Shown: positions 26,403 to 35,987 of the stretch, piece after piece
How the letters are laid out: each line of letters begins with the position of its first letter
Numbering within the stretch: the first letter of the stretch is position 1
NCBI GenBank assembly: GCA_044868695.1
Contig: JBIOWP010000074.1
Span: 1-38,087, forward strand
Direction of reading: 5' to 3'
DNA from: a bacterium
GTDB lineage: Bacteria > Sysuimicrobiota > Sysuimicrobiia > Sysuimicrobiales > Kaftiobacteriaceae
Length of the DNA: 38,087 nucleotides
Made by a program: the position numbers and the translations under genes
Notes under the pieces: generated by a model
The model's input: only the letters and a program-made list of their open reading frames with translations
Database searches by the model: none
What the model was told of the DNA's origin: nothing

Positions 26403-29400
26403 CTATCGCGAAGCGTTCTTGCGTGCAACCGCGAGGCGTTCGATCTGGTCGATGTCGCCGAGCTGCTCCAGGATACGTTCCGCTGTCGCGAATGCCCCGC
26501 TCTCGCCTGCGACGATGGCGTGTTCACACCGCGCGCGCGCCTCATAGGGGACAGCTTTGGTTTCCTGGAACAGCGTCGCGGCCCGGCCGAGCTCATCCGC
26601 ATCTGCGGCCATCACGCCCAGCGCCCTCCGGGCCTGCGCTTCGAGCGGCCGGTAGTGGAACTCAGCCGCGAACGCGGCGATCCGGCGGACGAGGTCAGGC
26701 GCCACCGGGTGCCGGTAGTCCGTCAGGAGCGACAGCGTACGCTCGTAATGCTCGATCGATGGGAGATGGCGAAAGGGGAACCTCCCGACATAGTGCGTCA
26801 TCGCCTCAAAGTTCAAGCGGAGATAGGGTTCGATACGCGTGACCACGGGAGAATCGGTGCGAGCCGTTCGAAATTTCTGGAGGATTTCGTCAATAATCTG
26901 TCCGAATTCCTCGATGGTTCGTTCGTCGCGCCGGGCCCGAGCGACGTCCAGCGCGGCCACGAACCCCCGGACCGCGTAGCCCGCAGCACTCCGGTTGCTG
27001 TCGATCCAGAGATGCTTCGCTTTGACCGCAGCGGCCAGCGCGTCGTCCCAGTTCCCTCGCAGGGTCAGCGCGTAGATCCGCCAGGCCGCCACGTGGAGCG
27101 CCCAGTGGGGAATTTGCCCCGGCTGGACGATCGCCAGCCCGGCGGCCGAAATCCCCTCGGCTTTTTCGAGTTCTCCGCCCAGCGCGCAGCCCCAGGCGAC
27201 CATCGCATGCGCGTCGACGCGCTCGACCAAATCCAGCCGGTCCTGAAGGCTTAGTCGCCGTTCGGCCAGTTGGATCACCTCCGGCCAGGCTCCTCTCGCC
27301 TCTGCGCATCCGCTGAGCGCGTCCAGGGCCATGCTCCGCAGCTTGGTATCGTCGAGTTGTTCGGCGATGTCGAGACCGCGGCGGGCACCCGCTTCGGCCG
27401 TCCGGATGTCCTCCTCGGTGGAGTCCGCCAGCCGCCAGAACGGGTAGAAGGCGTCGCCGATGAGGAAGGCCGCGATCGCCCGCCGATCGGTCGCCCGCGC
27501 CATGAGGGCGTGGCCCTCTGCCCGCAACCGGGCCATGGTTTCATCCGACGGTCGGGAGGCAACGGATCCCTGGCTTCTCATAAACAGGGTGATGAGTTTG
27601 GCCAGGACCCGGAGCTCCTGGTCGGGAGCGCGTCTGGCTTCCCTGTGCAGCCTCAGCGCGGTCCCATACGCTTCGGCGCCGGGGTCACCACCGAGCTGGA
27701 CGTCGCCCAGTCGCTCATACAGGTCGGGGTGGTCGGCGGGGTCGGCGAGTTCGATCGCGGCGCGCAAGTGTCTCGCGGCTTCAGCGTGAGCGGCCCCAGC
27801 CTGAGCCATGCCCGCCGCGCGTCCAAGCCAGTGGACGGCGCGTGCACGAATCTTCTCGTCGCCGGCCGCCTGCCGCAGCGTGGAGCCCAGGTGCGCCGCT
27901 TCCCGGTAGTGGTAGGCGATGAGCTCGGCCAGCGCGTCTTCCCTGCCGGCTGCCTGCCCTTCCATCCATTCCGCGGCGGTCGCGTGGAGGGCGGCGCGTT
28001 CACTTCGCGGCAGCGTTTGGTAGGCGACTTCCCGGATCAGGATGTGCCGGAAGCTGAACCGTTCCGCGTCGGCGGGCCGGATGAGGTCTCGCTCCACCAA
28101 ACGGTCGGTGAGCCCCGCGACCTGTCCGGCGAGGGCGGAGTCGAGGGCGGCGATACCGGGAACCAAAAAGCTCCGCCCAAAGACCGCACCGAGCTGCAGG
28201 ACCCGCCGCTCGGCGTGCTGCAGCAGGTCGAGACGCGCGAGCACCGTCGCCTGGACGGTGTCCGGCAGTTGGGCAAGAATGTGCGAGACGGCGGCTTCAT
28301 CATCGAGGGAGCCGACGCGGTCCATGACGGACCGGACGATTTCTCCGGCATAGAATGGGTTGCCGTCGGCCCGCTCCACGACCCGGGCAACAACCTGCGA
28401 CGACGACCGGCCCAGGAGATGCTCGACGAGAGCCTCCACCGCCGTGTCCGGGAGCGGCTCGAGCGCGAGCGAGACGTAATTCCGCCGTCCTCCGCCCCAT
28501 GCGGTGCGCCGGTCTAACAGTTCGGGGCGTGCCAGGGCAATGATCAGAACGGATGACTCCCCCCGCGGCTGCATGACGAATTCGACCAGATCGAGCAGGC
28601 TGTCGCTCGACCAGTGGAGATCTTCAAACACCAGGACAAGCGGCCGGCGCCGGGACGCCGACTCGACGAGGGTCCGCCACGCCCCAAAGAGGGCGTCACG
28701 GTCGATCGCTTCGAGTTCGGCGGCGCCGACGGTAGCGGCAAGCAGGTCGGCCATCCGCTGCGGCTGCTCCACCCCGGCATCGTGGGTCCACGCGGAGACC
28801 GCCGCGCGAATGCGTTCAGGCGGCGCGTCTTCTGGAATGCCGATGATGCGGAACAGCACGGCGCGCAGCGGCCAGTACGTCAGTCGCTGGCCGTACGGGA
28901 GGCACTGGGCGATGGCGATGCTGGCGTGAGGTGCCAGCGATGGGAGGCGGTCCAGAAACTCTTCGAGCAGGCGCGTCTTGCCTGTCCCGGCGGGGGCCAC
29001 CAGGCTGACCAGGAAGGGACGGCGCTGAGCAAACGCCTGGCGGGCCACCACTTCCAGGTGCGCGAGCTCCGTATCCCGCCCGATCAGAGGGCTCCGTCTC
29101 ACCGCGCGGGCCGCGCGTCCCAGGACGGTGACGGCTCTGACCGGCTGCGCCTTGCCCTTCGTCGCCACCTCCACGGGCTGGCTGAAGGCAAAGGCCTCGC
29201 CCGCGGCGCGGGCTGTTCGCTCGCTGCAGAGAATGCTCCAGGAATCTGCGGCCTGCTGGAGCCTGGCCGCCACGTTCACCGCGTCGCCGGTGATCAGGAA
29301 ATCCCCCGCTGCGGCGTCGCGGGCGGCGACCACTTCTCCTGTGTTGACCCCCACGCGAACCGGCAGCCGCTCCCGGAGGGTCGAATCCTGCCGCAGGCGG

Positions 29401-29657
29401 TCCCGCAATTCCAGGGCCGCATTGAGGGCTCGCTGACCATCGTCCCCGTGCGCCTGGGGCAGCCCAAAGACGGCCATCACGGCGTCCCCGATGAACTTCT
29501 CGAGCGTGCCTCCGTGGGCGGCGATGACCTCCTTGCAGATCGAGTAGAATTGGCTCATCAGTGCGCGGACGTCCTCTGGATCCAGCGTCTCGCCAAGCGC
29601 CGTGGACCCGGTGACGTCCGCAAAGAGGATTGTGACAAGCCGTCGTTCTTCGGCCAT
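26403..29657 (-). CDS. Class III adenylate/guanylate cyclase - STAND (AAA_16-type) ATPase - helical/TPR-like protein
   Basis: ERRLVTILFADVTGST, EKFIGDAVMA, RVGVNTG, GDAVNVAARL; Walker A APAGTGKT, Walker B VFEDLHW, GNPFY, FRHILIREVAY. The ORF-track extension to 30104 is antisense to the NIPSNAP gene. Confidence 0.92.
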   Translation of the reverse strand: MAEERRLVTILFADVTGSTALGETLDPEDVRALMSQFYSICKEVIAAHGGTLEKFIGDAVMAVFGLPQAHGDDGQRALNAALELRDRLRQDSTLRERLPVRVGVNTGEVVAARDAAAGDFLITGDAVNVAARLQQAADSWSILCSERTARAAGEAFAFSQPVEVATKGKAQPVRAVTVLGRAARAVRRSPLIGRDTELAHLEVVARQAFAQRRPFLVSLVAPAGTGKTRLLEEFLDRLPSLAPHASIAIAQCLPYGQRLTYWPLRAVLFRIIGIPEDAPPERIRAAVSAWTHDAGVEQPQRMADLLAATVGAAELEAIDRDALFGAWRTLVESASRRRPLVLVFEDLHWSSDSLLDLVEFVMQPRGESSVLIIALARPELLDRRTAWGGGRRNYVSLALEPLPDTAVEALVEHLLGRSSSQVVARVVERADGNPFYAGEIVRSVMDRVGSLDDEAAVSHILAQLPDTVQATVLARLDLLQHAERRVLQLGAVFGRSFLVPGIAALDSALAGQVAGLTDRLVERDLIRPADAERFSFRHILIREVAYQTLPRSERAALHATAAEWMEGQAAGREDALAELIAYHYREAAHLGSTLRQAAGDEKIRARAVHWLGRAAGMAQAGAAHAEAARHLRAAIELADPADHPDLYERLGDVQLGGDPGAEAYGTALRLHREARRAPDQELRVLAKLITLFMRSQGSVASRPSDETMARLRAEGHALMARATDRRAIAAFLIGDAFYPFWRLADSTEEDIRTAEAGARRGLDIAEQLDDTKLRSMALDALSGCAEARGAWPEVIQLAERRLSLQDRLDLVERVDAHAMVAWGCALGGELEKAEGISAAGLAIVQPGQIPHWALHVAAWRIYALTLRGNWDDALAAAVKAKHLWIDSNRSAAGYAVRGFVAALDVARARRDERTIEEFGQIIDEILQKFRTARTDSPVVTRIEPYLRLNFEAMTHYVGRFPFRHLPSIEHYERTLSLLTDYRHPVAPDLVRRIAAFAAEFHYRPLEAQARRALGVMAADADELGRAATLFQETKAVPYEARARCEHAIVAGESGAFATAERILEQLGDIDQIERLAVARKNASR

Positions 29658-29762
29658 CTGCGTTTGATGGAGCACGAGACCGTCGAGATTAGGTAGGCAG
29701 TTCTGTTCCAGCGAAAGGATTCCTGGACGGATGCGGCGCGATCGCCGACGGGAGTGATGAGG

Positions 29763-30062
29763 ATGAGGACCGAATTGCGAGTGTACACGATCAACCGGGG
29801 GAAGATGGACGAATTCGTCCGCGCCTGGAAGACGGGCGTCTATCCCCTGCGGCAGAAGGTCGGTTTCCGCATCGACGGCGCCTGGGTGCTCAAAGAGCGA
29901 AACCAGTTTGTGTGGCTGATGAGCTACGACGGCGACGACTGGGAGGCCAAAGACAGCGCGTACTATGCGTCTCCGGAACGGAAGGCGCTCAACCCCGATC
30001 CCGCCCAGTTCATCGCGCTGGCGGAGCACTGGTTTCTGACCGAGGTCGTCCCGCGCCGGTGA
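29763..30062 (+). CDS. NIPSNAP family protein
   Basis: ELRVYTINRGKMDEF...W, FVWL.SY, YYASPER; GGGAG SD. Alternative starts at 29754 and 29757. Confidence 0.8.
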   Translation: MRTELRVYTINRGKMDEFVRAWKTGVYPLRQKVGFRIDGAWVLKERNQFVWLMSYDGDDWEAKDSAYYASPERKALNPDPAQFIALAEHWFLTEVVPRR

Positions 30063-30181
30063 CTGTACGCGTGGAGCGCGCCAACCCCCACTACGTCCCG
30101 GCAAACTGGGACATCCAACCGCTCTTTTCGTGACGTCCGGCTCATGGAGAGCTGTGGCATCGGTGTTAGTCTAAGAGGGAA

Positions 30182-30937: not shown

Positions 30938-31078
30938 CACTGGCGAACGTGGAGGGCCGGCCTTCTCATGACGGCGCCCTCGCGGGCCAATCCCCCTTCC
31001 CAAGGCCGGAATCGCGCCTCACAAAGGATGCGGCCACCGGTCACCGAACGTCACCGTGACGAGTCGGGGGGACGCGTC

Positions 31079-33841
31079 GTGCCCGAGTTGCCTACAGGAA
31101 CCGTCACCTTTCTGTTTACCGACATCGAGGGGAGTACCAGGTTGTGGGAGGAGTATCCCCAGGCGATGCGGGAGGCCCTGGCACGCCATGACGCGCTGGT
31201 CCGCGCCGCGATCGAGGGGCACCACGGCCATGTATTCAAAACGATGGGTGATGCGTTCGACGCGGTGTTCGCGGACACGGGCGATGCCGTGTCCGCCGCC
31301 GCGGCCATTCAGCGTGCGCTGCAGGCGGAACACTGGGGGGTTCCGGGCGGGCTGCGGGCGCGGATTGCGCTGCATACCGGCGCTGCCGAGGGAAGGGAGC
31401 GCGACTACTTCGGACCATCGCTGAACCGCGCCGCGCGCCTGCTGGCCGCTGGTCACGGGGAGCAAACCCTCATCTCTGAGGCCACCCGGGCCCTGATCGA
31501 ATCATCTCTGCCGGAGGGCGTCGGCCTCCGCGACCTCGGCCAGCATCGCCTGAAAGACCTCGCGCACCCTGAGCACGTGTTTCAGCTGCTGGTGGCGGGA
31601 CTGCGTGACGACTTTCCCCCGCTGCGGTCGCTGAACGTGCTGCCCAACAACCTCCCACGCCAGCTCACCAGCTTCATCGGCCGGACCAGAGAACTGGCCG
31701 AGGTGAAGTCGCATCTGGGGAAGACATCGCTGCTCACGCTCACCGGCTCGGGCGGCGCGGGGAAGACCCGGCTGGCCCTGCAGGCGGCCGCGGATCTCAT
31801 TGAGTCATTCGCCGACGGCGTGTGGCTGGCTGAACTGACACCGCTCACCGATCCGGCGCTGGTCACCCAGACGGTAGCCACCGCGGTCGGTGTGCGCGAA
31901 GAACACCGTCCGCTCATCCAGACCCTGACCGACTCCCTGGTCCCAAAATCCACCCTCCTGGTCATCGACAACTGCGAGCATGTGCTGGCGGGATGCGCGG
32001 CCCTCGTGCAGACGCTGCTGCAGGTATGCCCGCGGCTGCGGGTGCTGGCGACCAGCCAGGAGGCGCTCGGCGTTGGCGGGGAGATCACCTACCGCGTGCC
32101 GTCGCTGTCGATGCCGGATCCGGACCGTCTGCCTCCTCTTGACCATCTGACCCAGTTCGAGTCCATCGGGCTGTTCGTCGAGCGCGCGGGGGCGAGCCGG
32201 CCGGGGTTTGTGCTTACGGCAGCTAATGCGTCCGCGGTCGCGCAGATCTGCGCCCGGCTCGACGGTATCCCGCTGGCGATCGAGCTGGCTGCCGCCCGGG
32301 TGAGGGTGCTCTCCGTCGAGGAAATTGCCGGCCGGCTGGACGACCGGTTCAAGCTGTTGACTGCCGGCAGCCGTACTGCGCCTCCCCGCCACCAGACGCT
32401 CCGGGCTGCGCTGGACTGGAGCCACGACCTGCTGGCCGGCAAGGAACAGGTCCTCCTGCGACGGCTGTCCGTCTTTGCGGGCGGCTGGACCCTTCCCGCG
32501 GCCGAGGCGGTGTGCGCGGACGAACGGTGCGAGGCCTCCGAGGTGCTGGACGTGCTGACCCGGCTGGTCGACCGTTCGCTGGTCATCGTCGGCGACCGCG
32601 AGCAACGCGAGACCTGGTACCGGATGCTCGACACCGTGCGCCTGTACGCGAGGGAGAAGCTCGCGGCAGCTGGCGAAGAAGAGGCGGTGCGGCGCCGGCA
32701 CCGTGATTGGTACCTGCAGTTTGTGGAGCAGGCGGAGCCCCAACTCCAGGGACCGGCTCTCGAATCCTGGCTGGGTCGCCTCGAGGCCGAGCACGACAAC
32801 ATCCGCGCCGCGCTCGAGTGGTGCAAGGCCGCGGAACCACACCCCGAGTACGGTCTGCGTCTCGCCGCCTCGATGTGGCACTTCTGGGAGGTGCGGGGAT
32901 ATTGGACCGAGGGCCGCGAGTGGCTGGAGGGTGCACTGACCAAAGGGCGCGAGGTGCTGATCCCCCCGCGGGTGAGAGCGCTGAACGGTGCGGCCAATCT
33001 GGCGTTCTTCCAGGGCGACTACGCGCGGGCGGTGGCATTGGGCGAAGAAAGTCTGGACCTCAGTCGCAAGCTTGGGGACAAGCGCGGGATCGCGTCGTGC
33101 CTGAACATTCTCGGCATGGAGGCCTGCCGCCTGGAGAAGTACGACCGGGCGGCGCAGCTCGGAGAAGAGAGCCTGGCGCTCAGCAGCGAAGTGGGCGACC
33201 GGTGGGGCGTGGCCGGCGCCCGGCTGGTCCTCGGGCTCGTCACACGCGGGCAGGGGGACTACGCGCGCGCCGCGACGCTGCTGGAGGAAAGCCTTGAGCA
33301 GTTCCGGCAGCTGGGAGACAAATGGGCGATTGCGATTACGCTGAATAACCTCGGCCTGGTGATGAGGGAGAAAGGTGAGTATGCCCGCGCGAGGGCGCTG
33401 CTCGAGGAGACTCTGGCGCTCTTCCGTGATCTCGGCGACCGGTGGGGGATCGCGTTCTCACTGGCCAACCTGGGCATCGTCGCCTGGAACGGTCAGGAGT
33501 ATGAGCGGGCCGCCGGCATGTACAGGGAAAGTCTGATCTTACGGAAGGAACTGCGCGATCGCCGCGGCATTTCCACCAGCCTGACCGGCCTGGCGGTCGT
33601 CGAGTCGGCGCTCGGTCGCGCGGAGCACGCCGCCGTGCTGTACGGAGCGGCCGAGGCCCTGCGCGAGGCCCTAGGCATCCCGCCGCCGCCGTTCATCCGG
33701 GACGACTACGACCGGCACGTGGCCGCGGCGCGGCAGCAGTTAGGCGACGCTGAGTTTGCGGCGGCTTGGCAGCGGGGCCGCGCGCTGACCCCCGAAGAGG
33801 CGATCGACTATGCGGTCGCCCAGCCGTCGTCCGTCAGGTAG
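31079..33841 (+). CDS. Class III adenylate cyclase - NB-ARC-like STAND ATPase - TPR protein
   Basis: LPTGTVTFLFTDIEGST, KTMGDAF, DYFGPSLNRAARL; NNLP..LTSFIGR, Walker A GSGGAGKT, Walker B LVIDNCEH, LDGIPLAIELAAAR; repeated GD.WG.A..L.NLG TPRs. Alternative ATG at 31028. Confidence 0.93.
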   Translation: MPELPTGTVTFLFTDIEGSTRLWEEYPQAMREALARHDALVRAAIEGHHGHVFKTMGDAFDAVFADTGDAVSAAAAIQRALQAEHWGVPGGLRARIALHTGAAEGRERDYFGPSLNRAARLLAAGHGEQTLISEATRALIESSLPEGVGLRDLGQHRLKDLAHPEHVFQLLVAGLRDDFPPLRSLNVLPNNLPRQLTSFIGRTRELAEVKSHLGKTSLLTLTGSGGAGKTRLALQAAADLIESFADGVWLAELTPLTDPALVTQTVATAVGVREEHRPLIQTLTDSLVPKSTLLVIDNCEHVLAGCAALVQTLLQVCPRLRVLATSQEALGVGGEITYRVPSLSMPDPDRLPPLDHLTQFESIGLFVERAGASRPGFVLTAANASAVAQICARLDGIPLAIELAAARVRVLSVEEIAGRLDDRFKLLTAGSRTAPPRHQTLRAALDWSHDLLAGKEQVLLRRLSVFAGGWTLPAAEAVCADERCEASEVLDVLTRLVDRSLVIVGDREQRETWYRMLDTVRLYAREKLAAAGEEEAVRRRHRDWYLQFVEQAEPQLQGPALESWLGRLEAEHDNIRAALEWCKAAEPHPEYGLRLAASMWHFWEVRGYWTEGREWLEGALTKGREVLIPPRVRALNGAANLAFFQGDYARAVALGEESLDLSRKLGDKRGIASCLNILGMEACRLEKYDRAAQLGEESLALSSEVGDRWGVAGARLVLGLVTRGQGDYARAATLLEESLEQFRQLGDKWAIAITLNNLGLVMREKGEYARARALLEETLALFRDLGDRWGIAFSLANLGIVAWNGQEYERAAGMYRESLILRKELRDRRGISTSLTGLAVVESALGRAEHAAVLYGAAEALREALGIPPPPFIRDDYDRHVAAARQQLGDAEFAAAWQRGRALTPEEAIDYAVAQPSSVR

Positions 33842-35276
33842 CCGATCCCCCGGTCCCGCGAGGGGCAGTTCGCCGCTCTCTTCCGGCGGGTTCAGTGTAA
33901 TCCCCGTTTCCTCCGCCCGTGGGCTTGGAAGCGTCCAGGTGTAGCACAATCCCGCCGTCCTCGTCGGGGCGGGTCTTCTCGAACACGGCCCGCCAGTCGG
34001 GCCGCAGTCTCTGCTCCCGGATCAGCCACGTCTCAAGCGCACGCACGACCTTCGGGTCGAACTGCGTCTCCACGTGGCGATACAGCTCCGTCATCGCGAC
34101 CTCGTGAGGCTTGTGCGCCCGGTGCGGGCGGTCGGATGTGATCGTATCGTAGGCGTCGCACGCCGCGAGGATGCGGCCACCCAGGCCGATGTCGTCGCTC
34201 TTCAGCCCAAGCGGGTATCCACGGCCGTCCAGCCGCTCGTGATGCTCGGCGAGGGTAGCGAGGTGTGGTCTCAGAACGGACAGGTGGCTGAGGATTCGCC
34301 GGCCGGCCTCCACGTGGGCTTCCATCTCCGCCCGCTCTCGGGCGGTGAGCTCCGCGGCCTTCAAGAGCACGCCGTCGCGTACCACGATCTTGCCGACGTC
34401 GTGGACGCGGGCCACCGCTTTGATCATGAGCGCCTGCTCTTCGGGGACGTTCAGCATGCGGGCGACGCCGTAGCTCATCTCTGAGACGCGCAGCGAGTGG
34501 TTGCCGGTCGTGTCGTCGCGCATGTCAATCACGTCAGCGAGGGCCGCCAGCATCGATTCCGCCTCGGTGCGCAGATGCGTGTACCGTTCGTACCCAAGCT
34601 TGACCATGAAGAGGGGCGGCACCAGGATCGCTGCAGCAGAAGGGTGAATGAGCCAGAGCTGCGCCATCACCACGCTGATGGCGATGAGCGTGAGGTTGAC
34701 CTGGGCGGAGTCTCGGAACCCCCAGGCCACCATCTGGGCAAGCCGGATCCGGTCGATGCGTGAAAGGACCAGCATCAGCAGCGTCAAGTTCATCACGTAG
34801 TATGCGACGCCGGCGGCAAGCTGGGCGAAGATCGTTCTCCAAACCGGCGGAAACGCCGGGTGCAGATGCTGCAGCTGGGCCGTGACGACCGCGAATGCGA
34901 TCGCGGCCGCCCCCGTGGATATCGCATACATCGAGGCGTTGAACAGGAGCTTGTAGTACGGTTTGTTGGACGCTAAGTCGGCGACAATGACCGCTAGCAC
35001 GGCCAGGAGAAGCGCGGTCGGCCAGTCGAACGTGTAGAGCGTCAACAGGATGATGGTAATTGTCAAACTCTCGTCCTTGTGGGCGGCGCGGCCCAGCGTG
35101 AAGGGCACCGGCTTGAGCTCGCTGATGATCGCGAGCACAAGCAGCATCAGGAACCAGCCTGGGCCGATGTCGAACAGACGCGGCGTGGTCGACAGGAGGG
35201 AGTGAATGGCCCCCCACGCCGTTATGGCGCCCCCGAGCCACAAGAGAGGAAGGATCACCCGCAGTTGGCCGGTCAT
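33834..35276 (-). CDS. Membrane-sensor HD-GYP phosphodiesterase (multi-TM N-terminus, MASE9-like)
   Basis: About 7-8 hydrophobic segments including K..FN; HD-GYP motifs HSLRV, HDVGK, HHERLDGRGYP.GL, CDAYD.ITSDRP. Start overlaps the DUF5317 stop (ATGA). The MASE9 label is tentative. Confidence 0.92.
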   Translation of the reverse strand: MTGQLRVILPLLWLGGAITAWGAIHSLLSTTPRLFDIGPGWFLMLLVLAIISELKPVPFTLGRAAHKDESLTITIILLTLYTFDWPTALLLAVLAVIVADLASNKPYYKLLFNASMYAISTGAAAIAFAVVTAQLQHLHPAFPPVWRTIFAQLAAGVAYYVMNLTLLMLVLSRIDRIRLAQMVAWGFRDSAQVNLTLIAISVVMAQLWLIHPSAAAILVPPLFMVKLGYERYTHLRTEAESMLAALADVIDMRDDTTGNHSLRVSEMSYGVARMLNVPEEQALMIKAVARVHDVGKIVVRDGVLLKAAELTARERAEMEAHVEAGRRILSHLSVLRPHLATLAEHHERLDGRGYPLGLKSDDIGLGGRILAACDAYDTITSDRPHRAHKPHEVAMTELYRHVETQFDPKVVRALETWLIREQRLRPDWRAVFEKTRPDEDGGIVLHLDASKPTGGGNGDYTEPAGRERRTAPRGTGGSAT

Positions 35277-35833
35277 CTGGCCTCCCCCGCGCCACGATGG
35301 GCACGCATCAATCGCTGGACCAGCGCGAATGCGCCGATGGCGACCAGCGAGTCACCGCCGCTAAATTCCCGTCTCAGCGGAAGCCACTCAGGAGTTTGGA
35401 AGACGTCTCCAAGGGCCCACAGCCGTGTCCCCTGGTCGAGCAGCACCGAGTTATTATGGACGCCTGCCGCGGCGACCCGAGCGTCCGCCACCCCCTCGAG
35501 CGCAGATGGCGCGACAGGCATGAAGCCGCCGTTGGCAAGGATGACGGCGGTGTTGGCGGCGAGGCCCAGGCCGATCAGCCAGATCCATGACGTGCGTCGA
35601 TTGGACCAGACAAACGTGAGCATGATGAGATACGACACGATATGGAGCACGGCCGCAAACATCCGGGCCGGATGTGAGGCGCTTTCATCGGGGAGGAAGG
35701 CGAGGATCTGCGCACCGAGCGCAAGGAATGGCAAAGCCGGAAGCCGCCACCGGTGGCCGCCAAACGCGCTGATGCGCCCGCCGCGGACCACCCCGACCAG
35801 AAGGGCCAGGATGACTACACTGAGGAGGAGCAT
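35273..35833 (-). CDS. DUF5317 family membrane protein (putative LspA-like peptidase)
   Basis: G..RGGR, GLAAN..VI.ANGG.MPV, L..LGD, FS.GD pattern; GGAGGG SD before ATG 35833. Confidence 0.85.
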   Translation of the reverse strand: MLLLSVVILALLVGVVRGGRISAFGGHRWRLPALPFLALGAQILAFLPDESASHPARMFAAVLHIVSYLIMLTFVWSNRRTSWIWLIGLGLAANTAVILANGGFMPVAPSALEGVADARVAAAGVHNNSVLLDQGTRLWALGDVFQTPEWLPLRREFSGGDSLVAIGAFALVQRLMRAHRGAGEAR

Positions 35834-35894: not shown

Positions 35895-35987
35895 CTACCG
35901 CCACTTCCCGCCTGCCCCGCTCGCGATGATCAGCGAAGCGAACATCAGGAGCGTCACAAGCAGGCCAAGAAATCTCCTCCACCGCAT
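35895..35987 (-). CDS. 30-aa micropeptide MRWRRFLGLLVTLLMFASLIIASGAGGKWR (putative signalling-peptide precursor)
   Basis: ATG 35987 preceded by a G-rich SD tract (GGGGAGGGGGGTGGG); TAG at 35897-35895; basic N-terminus, hydrophobic core and short polar tail; first gene of the DUF5317-HD-GYP operon. Confidence 0.75.
   Translation of the reverse strand: MRWRRFLGLLVTLLMFASLIIASGAGGKWR

Follow-up and report, generated by a model that had tools for sequence, protein, structure and literature searches.

The window, by which we mean the whole stretch of 38,087 nucleotides that was analysed, carries on its minus strand a gene of 186 codons (35273..35833) whose ATG is preceded by GGAGG. DUF5317 (PF17248, E 1e-29) was the sole Pfam match of the encoded protein at E up to 0.1, and five membrane helices were predicted in it. 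An ORF of 30 codons without annotation (35895-35987, minus strand), which ends 61 bases upstream, likely encodes a signal precursor that is also the substrate of the DUF5317 protein. Downstream, the stop codon of the DUF5317 gene overlaps (ATGA) the start of a gene for a protein of 480 residues (33834..35276, minus strand), in which a MASE9-like membrane domain is joined to an HD-GYP domain (HD_5, E 1.8e-28) with both the HD and the GYP motifs present. The MASE9 domain scored 20.3 bits, under the Pfam cut-off of 24.3, and this protein is likely to be a receptor and c-di-GMP phosphodiesterase. By Pfam, two class III cyclase-ATPase genes lie beyond it, one at 26403-30104 on the minus strand and one with TPR repeats at 30968-33841 on the plus strand; the latter converges on the HD-GYP gene, their ends overlapping by 8 bases. 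A search upstream in the window found no riboswitch, promoter or terminator. Two relatives have a c-di-GMP-I riboswitch immediately ahead of the peptide gene (L015:1061-1140, plus strand; L009:2332-2418, minus strand), which suggests feedback.

The sequence-only reading of this DNA had noted in the DUF5317 protein a GLAAN in a membrane helix, an LGD-x17-D pattern and an FSGGD, and had likened them to the active site of signal peptidase II (LspA). All three were confirmed. G90-L-A-A-N94 (35552..35566, minus strand) lies in helix 4, predicted at residues 84-100; D143 (35405..35407, minus strand), the candidate first catalytic Asp, ends L141-G-D143; and D161 (35351..35353, minus strand), the candidate second one, ends F157-S-G-G-D161, an S-x-G-D motif, with 17 residues between the two. 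The second Asp had been placed in FSGGD, which was correct; its placement just before the last helix needs refining, since in the model D161 already belongs to the first turn of that helix (159-184). Both Asp were invariant in an alignment of 110 homologues, drawn from 120 listed ones with ten omitted that were mostly shorter or without a contig. They were found in 264/266 (D143) and 262/266 (D161) DUF5317 proteins, and in 340/348 and 338/348 non-redundant homologues spanning many phyla and phages, where the exceptions were nearly all gaps. This conservation is beyond chance, and the DNA pattern used to collect the loci did not contain the two Asp positions. The same pattern did contain G90, N94, I98, N101, G102, G103, M105 and P106, so that the conservation of these residues over the 348 rows is partly circular; over the 266 proteins it is not, and there G90 was kept in 266 and N94 in 265. 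The spacing between the Asp also proved similar to that of LspA, as had been suggested: of 333 DUF5317 sequences caught by the search expression, 224 have a spacing of 18, and in LspA it is 14-19 for 57 of 59 sequences. A motif count of 1/149 hydrophobic ORFs was set aside, since its filter also overlooked the LspA of the genome itself.

The DUF5317 family comprises 7,424 clusters at 50% identity, and no paper naming it was found in a literature library with few subscription journals. Short DUF5317-like proteins of about 100-190 residues on viral contigs (L066-L085; L207, L237, L240, L261, L282) keep both Asp motifs, many of them without the two N-terminal helices, and may be minimal phage peptidases. 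In addition, eight loci (L087, L088, L094, L117, L125, L140, L141, L143) carry fusions of DUF5317 with MFS transporters, and others (L065; P0202, P0221) fusions with EAL- or GGDEF-type proteins.

A review describes LspA as unique at the sequence level (PMC12067869). DUF5317 gave no PF01252 (Peptidase_A8) match in Pfam at E up to 0.1, a sequence search of the PDB listed no LspA among its matches, and the ESM Atlas returned no usable match; pepsin (E ~1) and IF2, which did appear in the PDB search, were dismissed as chance. A scan of viral DNA for LspA gave one locus. With hhalign, shallow profiles paired D143 and D161 with the catalytic Asp pair of LspA at a probability of 13-15%, and profiles of 348 DUF5317 and 60 LspA sequences again paired both Asp, at a probability of 46.6% (P 2e-4). 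The latter comparison scored 30.5; reversed profiles reached 20.0 and 20.5, and none of 60 block shuffles exceeded 17.7. FSxGD of DUF5317 was paired with FNxAD of LspA and D143 with the Asp of VxD, and the flanking F and G were paired as well. The confident stretch covers 48 columns, GLAAN lying outside it, and when the alignment was forced to full length the GAxGN of LspA was paired with residues other than GLAAN. G90-x3-N94 is conserved, but the profile alignment did not equate it with GAxGN, so that the proposed correspondence of the two motifs is no more than possible.

The full-length model of the DUF5317 protein (pLDDT 87) drew LspA at ranks 8 and 13 in VIA-align. A search of the viral library gave nothing. 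A trimmed model of residues 52-182 (pLDDT 91.7), the limits of which were chosen after LspA was suspected, was based on an alignment of 144 rows, comprising the window protein and 143 of 158 candidate rows, with six short or contig-end rows removed by hand and nine others left out to limit the size of the alignment. When this model was compared with 48,161 chains by VIA-align, LspA took ranks 1 and 2, with a Z of 6.5 (89 residues at an rmsd of 2.8 A) and 6.3 (88 residues at 3.2 A), the next row having a Z of 5.9, and LspA showed the highest sequence identity among the 50 listed rows in both runs (18% and 17%). Foldseek, one of the comparisons proposed by the sequence-only reading, gave a divided answer: the trimmed model had LspA chains at ranks 1, 3, 4 and 6 (E 0.6-2.9; TM 0.54 to 6ryp; both 6ryp and 5dir were identified as LspA), whereas the full-length model gave no hit, LspA being absent from its list. 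Every LspA score is below the significance threshold of its own method (hhalign under 50%, Z under 8, Foldseek E of at least 0.6). The structural match covers about residues 60-158 of LspA, beginning at 59-61 in three of four rows, and the N-terminal third of LspA (residues 1-59, with the first helix and the cradle strands) has no counterpart in DUF5317.

The predicted topology and couplings agree with this picture. K and R make up 17-21% of the loops after helices 1, 3 and 5 and 6.5% of the Asp-bearing loop (348 sequences); by the positive-inside rule the latter loop is therefore likely to face outward, like the LspA dyad, for which the review gives an outward orientation (PMC12067869). The top coupling, F145-F157, corresponds to a hairpin, and together with the model strands 143-146 and 156-157 it implies, within the model, that D143 lies near the last helix, which bears D161. 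Couplings of D143 and D161 themselves were discounted, since incomplete rows can create them.

These data might also be read to mean that the Asp of DUF5317 catalyse a different reaction of the peptide, for instance acylation or transpeptidation, the likeness to LspA reflecting a common arrangement of helices. The Z scores of LspA are within 1 of those of unrelated bundles, DUF5317 has invariant residues of its own (Q42, N78, N101-G-G-x-M-P106), and its conserved columns lack the NxGxAF motif and the Arg that are invariant in LspA sequences. We nevertheless regard this as improbable, since the sequence profiles, which are free of any model, pair the same two Asp with their flanking F and G, and LspA leads the listed rows in identity. 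The sequence and structure methods agree, and DUF5317 is in our judgement quite likely a remote homologue of the catalytic half of LspA. For the proposed LspA-fold protease, the pairing of the Asp and the top fold ranks speak in favour, and the scores short of significance and the match limited to about residues 60-158 speak against; the proposal is partly supported.

In DUF5317 and in LspA (PF01252; 6RYP, 5DIR), the two Asp are similarly spaced. As in LspA, the DUF5317 model has the first of them on a strand and the second at the beginning of the last helix, and it appears to superpose on the last three helices and the hairpin of LspA. DUF5317 differs, however, in having about 30 inserted residues ahead of the first Asp and two extra N-terminal helices, and its likely substrate has no Cys, whereas LspA substrates carry a lipobox with a lipid-modified Cys at +1. 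DUF5317 is, moreover, patchily distributed. The source genome carries its own lspA, and a separate lspA was found in 34/34 genomes, 33 of which had been picked for carrying DUF5317; because lspA is kept separately, replacement of LspA by DUF5317 was ruled out.

The 30-codon ORF encodes a basic N-terminus, a hydrophobic helix, A-S-G-A and a tail G-G-K-W-R, and similar small ORFs stand first in, or within, most of the operons in the loci collected. A peptide profile was built from 56 ORFs of the GTDB loci, picked by motif and by eye, with the window peptide left out. At 17.7 bits, the window ORF was the only one to reach 12 bits among 28,003 small ORFs in its genome. The profile matched 38/78 held-out metagenome loci (18/25 of those with wide flanks), 9/9 HD-GYP-type loci of relatives, three of which had been seen before, and 8/11 Clostridiaceae loci other than the agr type. 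Two collections of lspA loci, of 99 kb and 97 kb, contained no match at 12 bits. Second codon positions varied least in 6/6 comparisons with relatives, as in a real gene. NCBIfam holds no family for these peptides, and nothing appeared among the 37 aligned ones beyond single weak matches. Tandem copies of the peptide gene, two or three in number, occur in seven loci (L236, L285, L248, L214, L160, L096, L103). Elsewhere in the source genome (G000), the minus strand of contig C53 carries a signal-peptide-like ORF of 49 codons (10.8 bits; stop about 17,540 bases from the strand start) with three tandem S-A-T-W-E repeats, which may be a multi-copy peptide precursor.

A GTDB pattern scan gave 80 loci with flanks, of which 79 were DUF5317 (one of these, L093, comes from genome G099, which is flagged unpublished). 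Their neighbours and fusion partners, of which 89 of 164 proteins entered the Pfam survey, include HD-GYP, GGDEF and EAL enzymes, BTAD-TPR activators, AgrB and MFS fusions. By profiles built from Pfam matches, 58 of the 79 loci contain a c-di-GMP enzyme domain, HD-GYP or GGDEF among them, 16 a domain of BTAD or TPR-like type and five AgrB. A signalling domain of any kind was present in 67/79 loci (63/79 within 1.5 kb) and in 40/78 metagenome loci, many of which are short, compared with 0/59 lspA control loci. In two loci, genes for family 5 (oligopeptide-type) solute-binding proteins directly follow DUF5317 (L107:1607-3229, L119:639-2345).

The association was also examined from the side of the sensor. 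The peptide profile matched directly upstream in 8/30 actinobacterial MASE9 loci, and a related ORF was recognised by eye in 22/30, many with an amphipathic leader that escapes the profile. DUF5317 occurs in 21/30 actinobacterial genomes with MASE9 and in 6/19 without it (one of these six, G236, is flagged unpublished). Six actinobacterial genomes, of unstated completeness, have the peptide and the MASE9 gene with no DUF5317 match; five of them were rechecked with a broader profile, a search run without a positive control. The idea that DUF5317 is required in all peptide-MASE9 operons was therefore rejected.

The aligned peptides bear on whether DUF5317 cuts at all. Around the proposed site, position -2 is G in 28/37 peptides, -1 is A or S in 37/37, +3 is K or R in 32/37 and +4 is W in 22/37. 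DUF5317 might accordingly be a non-catalytic partner or co-receptor, its Asp holding the basic residue of the tail, with the peptide an uncut membrane micro-protein or a substrate of signal peptidase I; the nearly constant K/R at one tail position and the small residue at -1, which suits signal peptidase I, would fit, as would the six genomes with peptide and sensor alone, the overlap of the DUF5317 stop with the sensor start and the GGDEF/EAL fusions. Indeed, the compatibility of many precursors with signal peptidase I counts against the proposal of a signal released by DUF5317. However, Pro directly follows the proposed site in 6/37 peptides, and also in the G-A-P class, and Pro at +1 blocks signal peptidase I. 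In addition, the fold comparisons favour a protease, the dyad of which aligns with the Asp pair of DUF5317, and the agr-linked clade described below keeps both Asp beside AgrD tails that have no basic residue. We consider a non-catalytic role unlikely, though it deserves more weight than the other alternatives.

A second question is what would be cut. In one clade (L008, L010-L014, L054-L064, L332-L335), DUF5317 with both Asp is flanked by a small ORF that has two CxxC motifs and by a gene that, from its sequence, we take to be mraZ-like, and the peptide profile matched nearby in 0/4 loci; this, too, counts against the proposal. The mraZ-linked clade and the short phage versions, which likewise keep both Asp, together with the dispensability of DUF5317 in related operons, would suit an LspA-like protease with another substrate, acting in the removal of leader remnants or in the clipping of the sensor or some different membrane protein. 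On the other hand, the peptide gene stays with DUF5317 where BTAD-TPR activators, MFS fusions or AgrB take the place of the usual partner, and a defined cut site would account for the short tail and the conservation of small residues; we therefore give little credence to a different substrate.

A divergent clostridial clade shows the order DUF5317, a membrane ORF of 150-170 residues, agrB and agrD, followed by a GGDEF-HD-GYP protein in the four loci checked. AgrB was confirmed downstream of DUF5317 in 18 loci; the agr-linked members form a single branch (SH-aLRT 90 in a quick tree of 89 rows), so that these 18 loci may represent one event. In 16/16 AgrD inside these loci, the leader ends in A-[ST]-S-A before the Cys, in register with the A-S-G-A of the linear peptides. 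A published table gives the signals of C. perfringens and C. acetobutylicum as rings starting at Cys (PMC12312760), so that in these species the leader must be cut just before Cys, a position like that at which LspA cuts (PMC9360617). According to a C. perfringens study, the transcript of agrB and agrD also covers two hypothetical genes upstream of them, and an agrB mutant was complemented solely by a four-gene plasmid (PMC2706048), which a promoter effect explains equally well. Locus L374 shows the agr-clade gene order, and the five ring residues of its AgrD are those of that paper, from which the first gene of the published operon would appear to be a DUF5317 gene.

AgrB was also present in 31/52 Clostridiaceae genomes that lack DUF5317, and the same operon type was found in 11 of 30 AgrB loci examined from such genomes. 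Nine genomes with this operon remained DUF5317-negative with a broader profile, a search in which the positive control was detected. Hence a requirement for DUF5317 in all agr operons was rejected, and the protein is accessory or replaceable there. The hydrophobic ORF of 150-170 residues, which belongs to no Pfam family, is found ahead of agrB whether DUF5317 is there or not (L381-L397, L447-L468), in two or three tandem copies in some loci. On a viral contig (L073:1948-5117), a DUF5317 of agr-clade type is accompanied by a membrane ORF, by a small ORF that is AgrD-like but lacks the ring Cys, and by an ORF resembling AgrB.

The conserved Asp pair, the predicted LspA-like fold and the peptide and c-di-GMP genes next to DUF5317 suggest that it likely cuts the peptide and so releases a signal. 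On balance, we hold it probable that DUF5317 is a membrane aspartic peptidase that cuts the peptide of the adjacent gene, and that the released signal is sensed by the neighbouring membrane c-di-GMP enzyme. From the observed gene order, Asp pair, conserved peptide gene and co-occurrence with signalling enzymes, and from the predicted fold and topology, we infer cleavage, cut site, release, binding and an effect in either direction. The prediction is of five helices with the Asp pair on the outside: a beta-hairpin carries D143 next to the point where the final helix, bearing D161, begins. The precursor would insert with its basic N-terminus inside, and the dyad would cut after the small residues that end the helix, in the window peptide after A25, give or take one residue. 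This cut would free about five residues, G-G-K-W-R, which may bind the MASE9-like domain and alter the HD-GYP activity, and hence c-di-GMP. In the clostridial agr clade, DUF5317 would remove the AgrD leader ahead of the ring Cys.

Literature searches on the combination of peptide, DUF5317 and sensor turned up nothing on such a system, and comparison with known ones reveals partial likenesses. The gene downstream of DUF5317 resembles in architecture those of the MASE9-HD-GYP proteins TM1467 of T. maritima and HdgA of S. venezuelae, but its MASE9 score is under the Pfam cut-off. A preprint on MASE9 states that the ligand is unknown and proposes binding within the membrane, and its main text does not contain the word "peptide" (bioRxiv 10.1101/2021.11.05.467447). 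The hdgA mutants had no developmental phenotype, and the authors suspected that an activating signal was missing (PMC6205966). As in RRNPP systems (Phr, NprX and others), a signal-peptide-like precursor ends in a short linear C-terminal peptide, and in Chloroflexota DUF5317 is adjoined by TPR-bearing regulators. Unlike those systems, however, the receptor candidate of the window is a membrane HD-GYP enzyme and not a cytoplasmic TPR protein, the cyclase-ATPase-TPR gene lies further on and on the other strand, and the candidate protease is encoded in the operon. Staphylococcal agr (AgrD, AgrB, MroQ, AgrC) has the same logic of precursor, membrane protease and membrane receptor, and in the clostridial agrB-agrD operons DUF5317 would take the part that MroQ plays in S. 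aureus (PMC12312760). The window operon, in contrast, has no AgrB, ring Cys or kinase, its output would be c-di-GMP, and MroQ is a CAAX-type metalloprotease whereas the candidate chemistry of DUF5317 is aspartic. DUF5317 would thus have LspA-like chemistry and agr-like logic and yet is a member of neither system.

A broader reading, which we put forward tentatively and would not yet call probable, is that DUF5317 represents a second LspA-like family of intramembrane aspartic proteases for the maturation of signal peptides, that the pentapeptide is the missing ligand of MASE9-type c-di-GMP enzymes, and that the whole forms a widespread system that has not been described. If this is true, a relative of LspA with 7,424 clusters that acts on unlipidated peptides would be a new protease family, and a candidate enzyme would be named for the removal of the AgrD leader in some clostridia. 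The MASE9 sensors would gain a candidate ligand open to immediate synthesis and testing, and in phyla that include Actinomycetota, Bacillota and Chloroflexota, peptide-based signalling between cells would have a direct tie to c-di-GMP.
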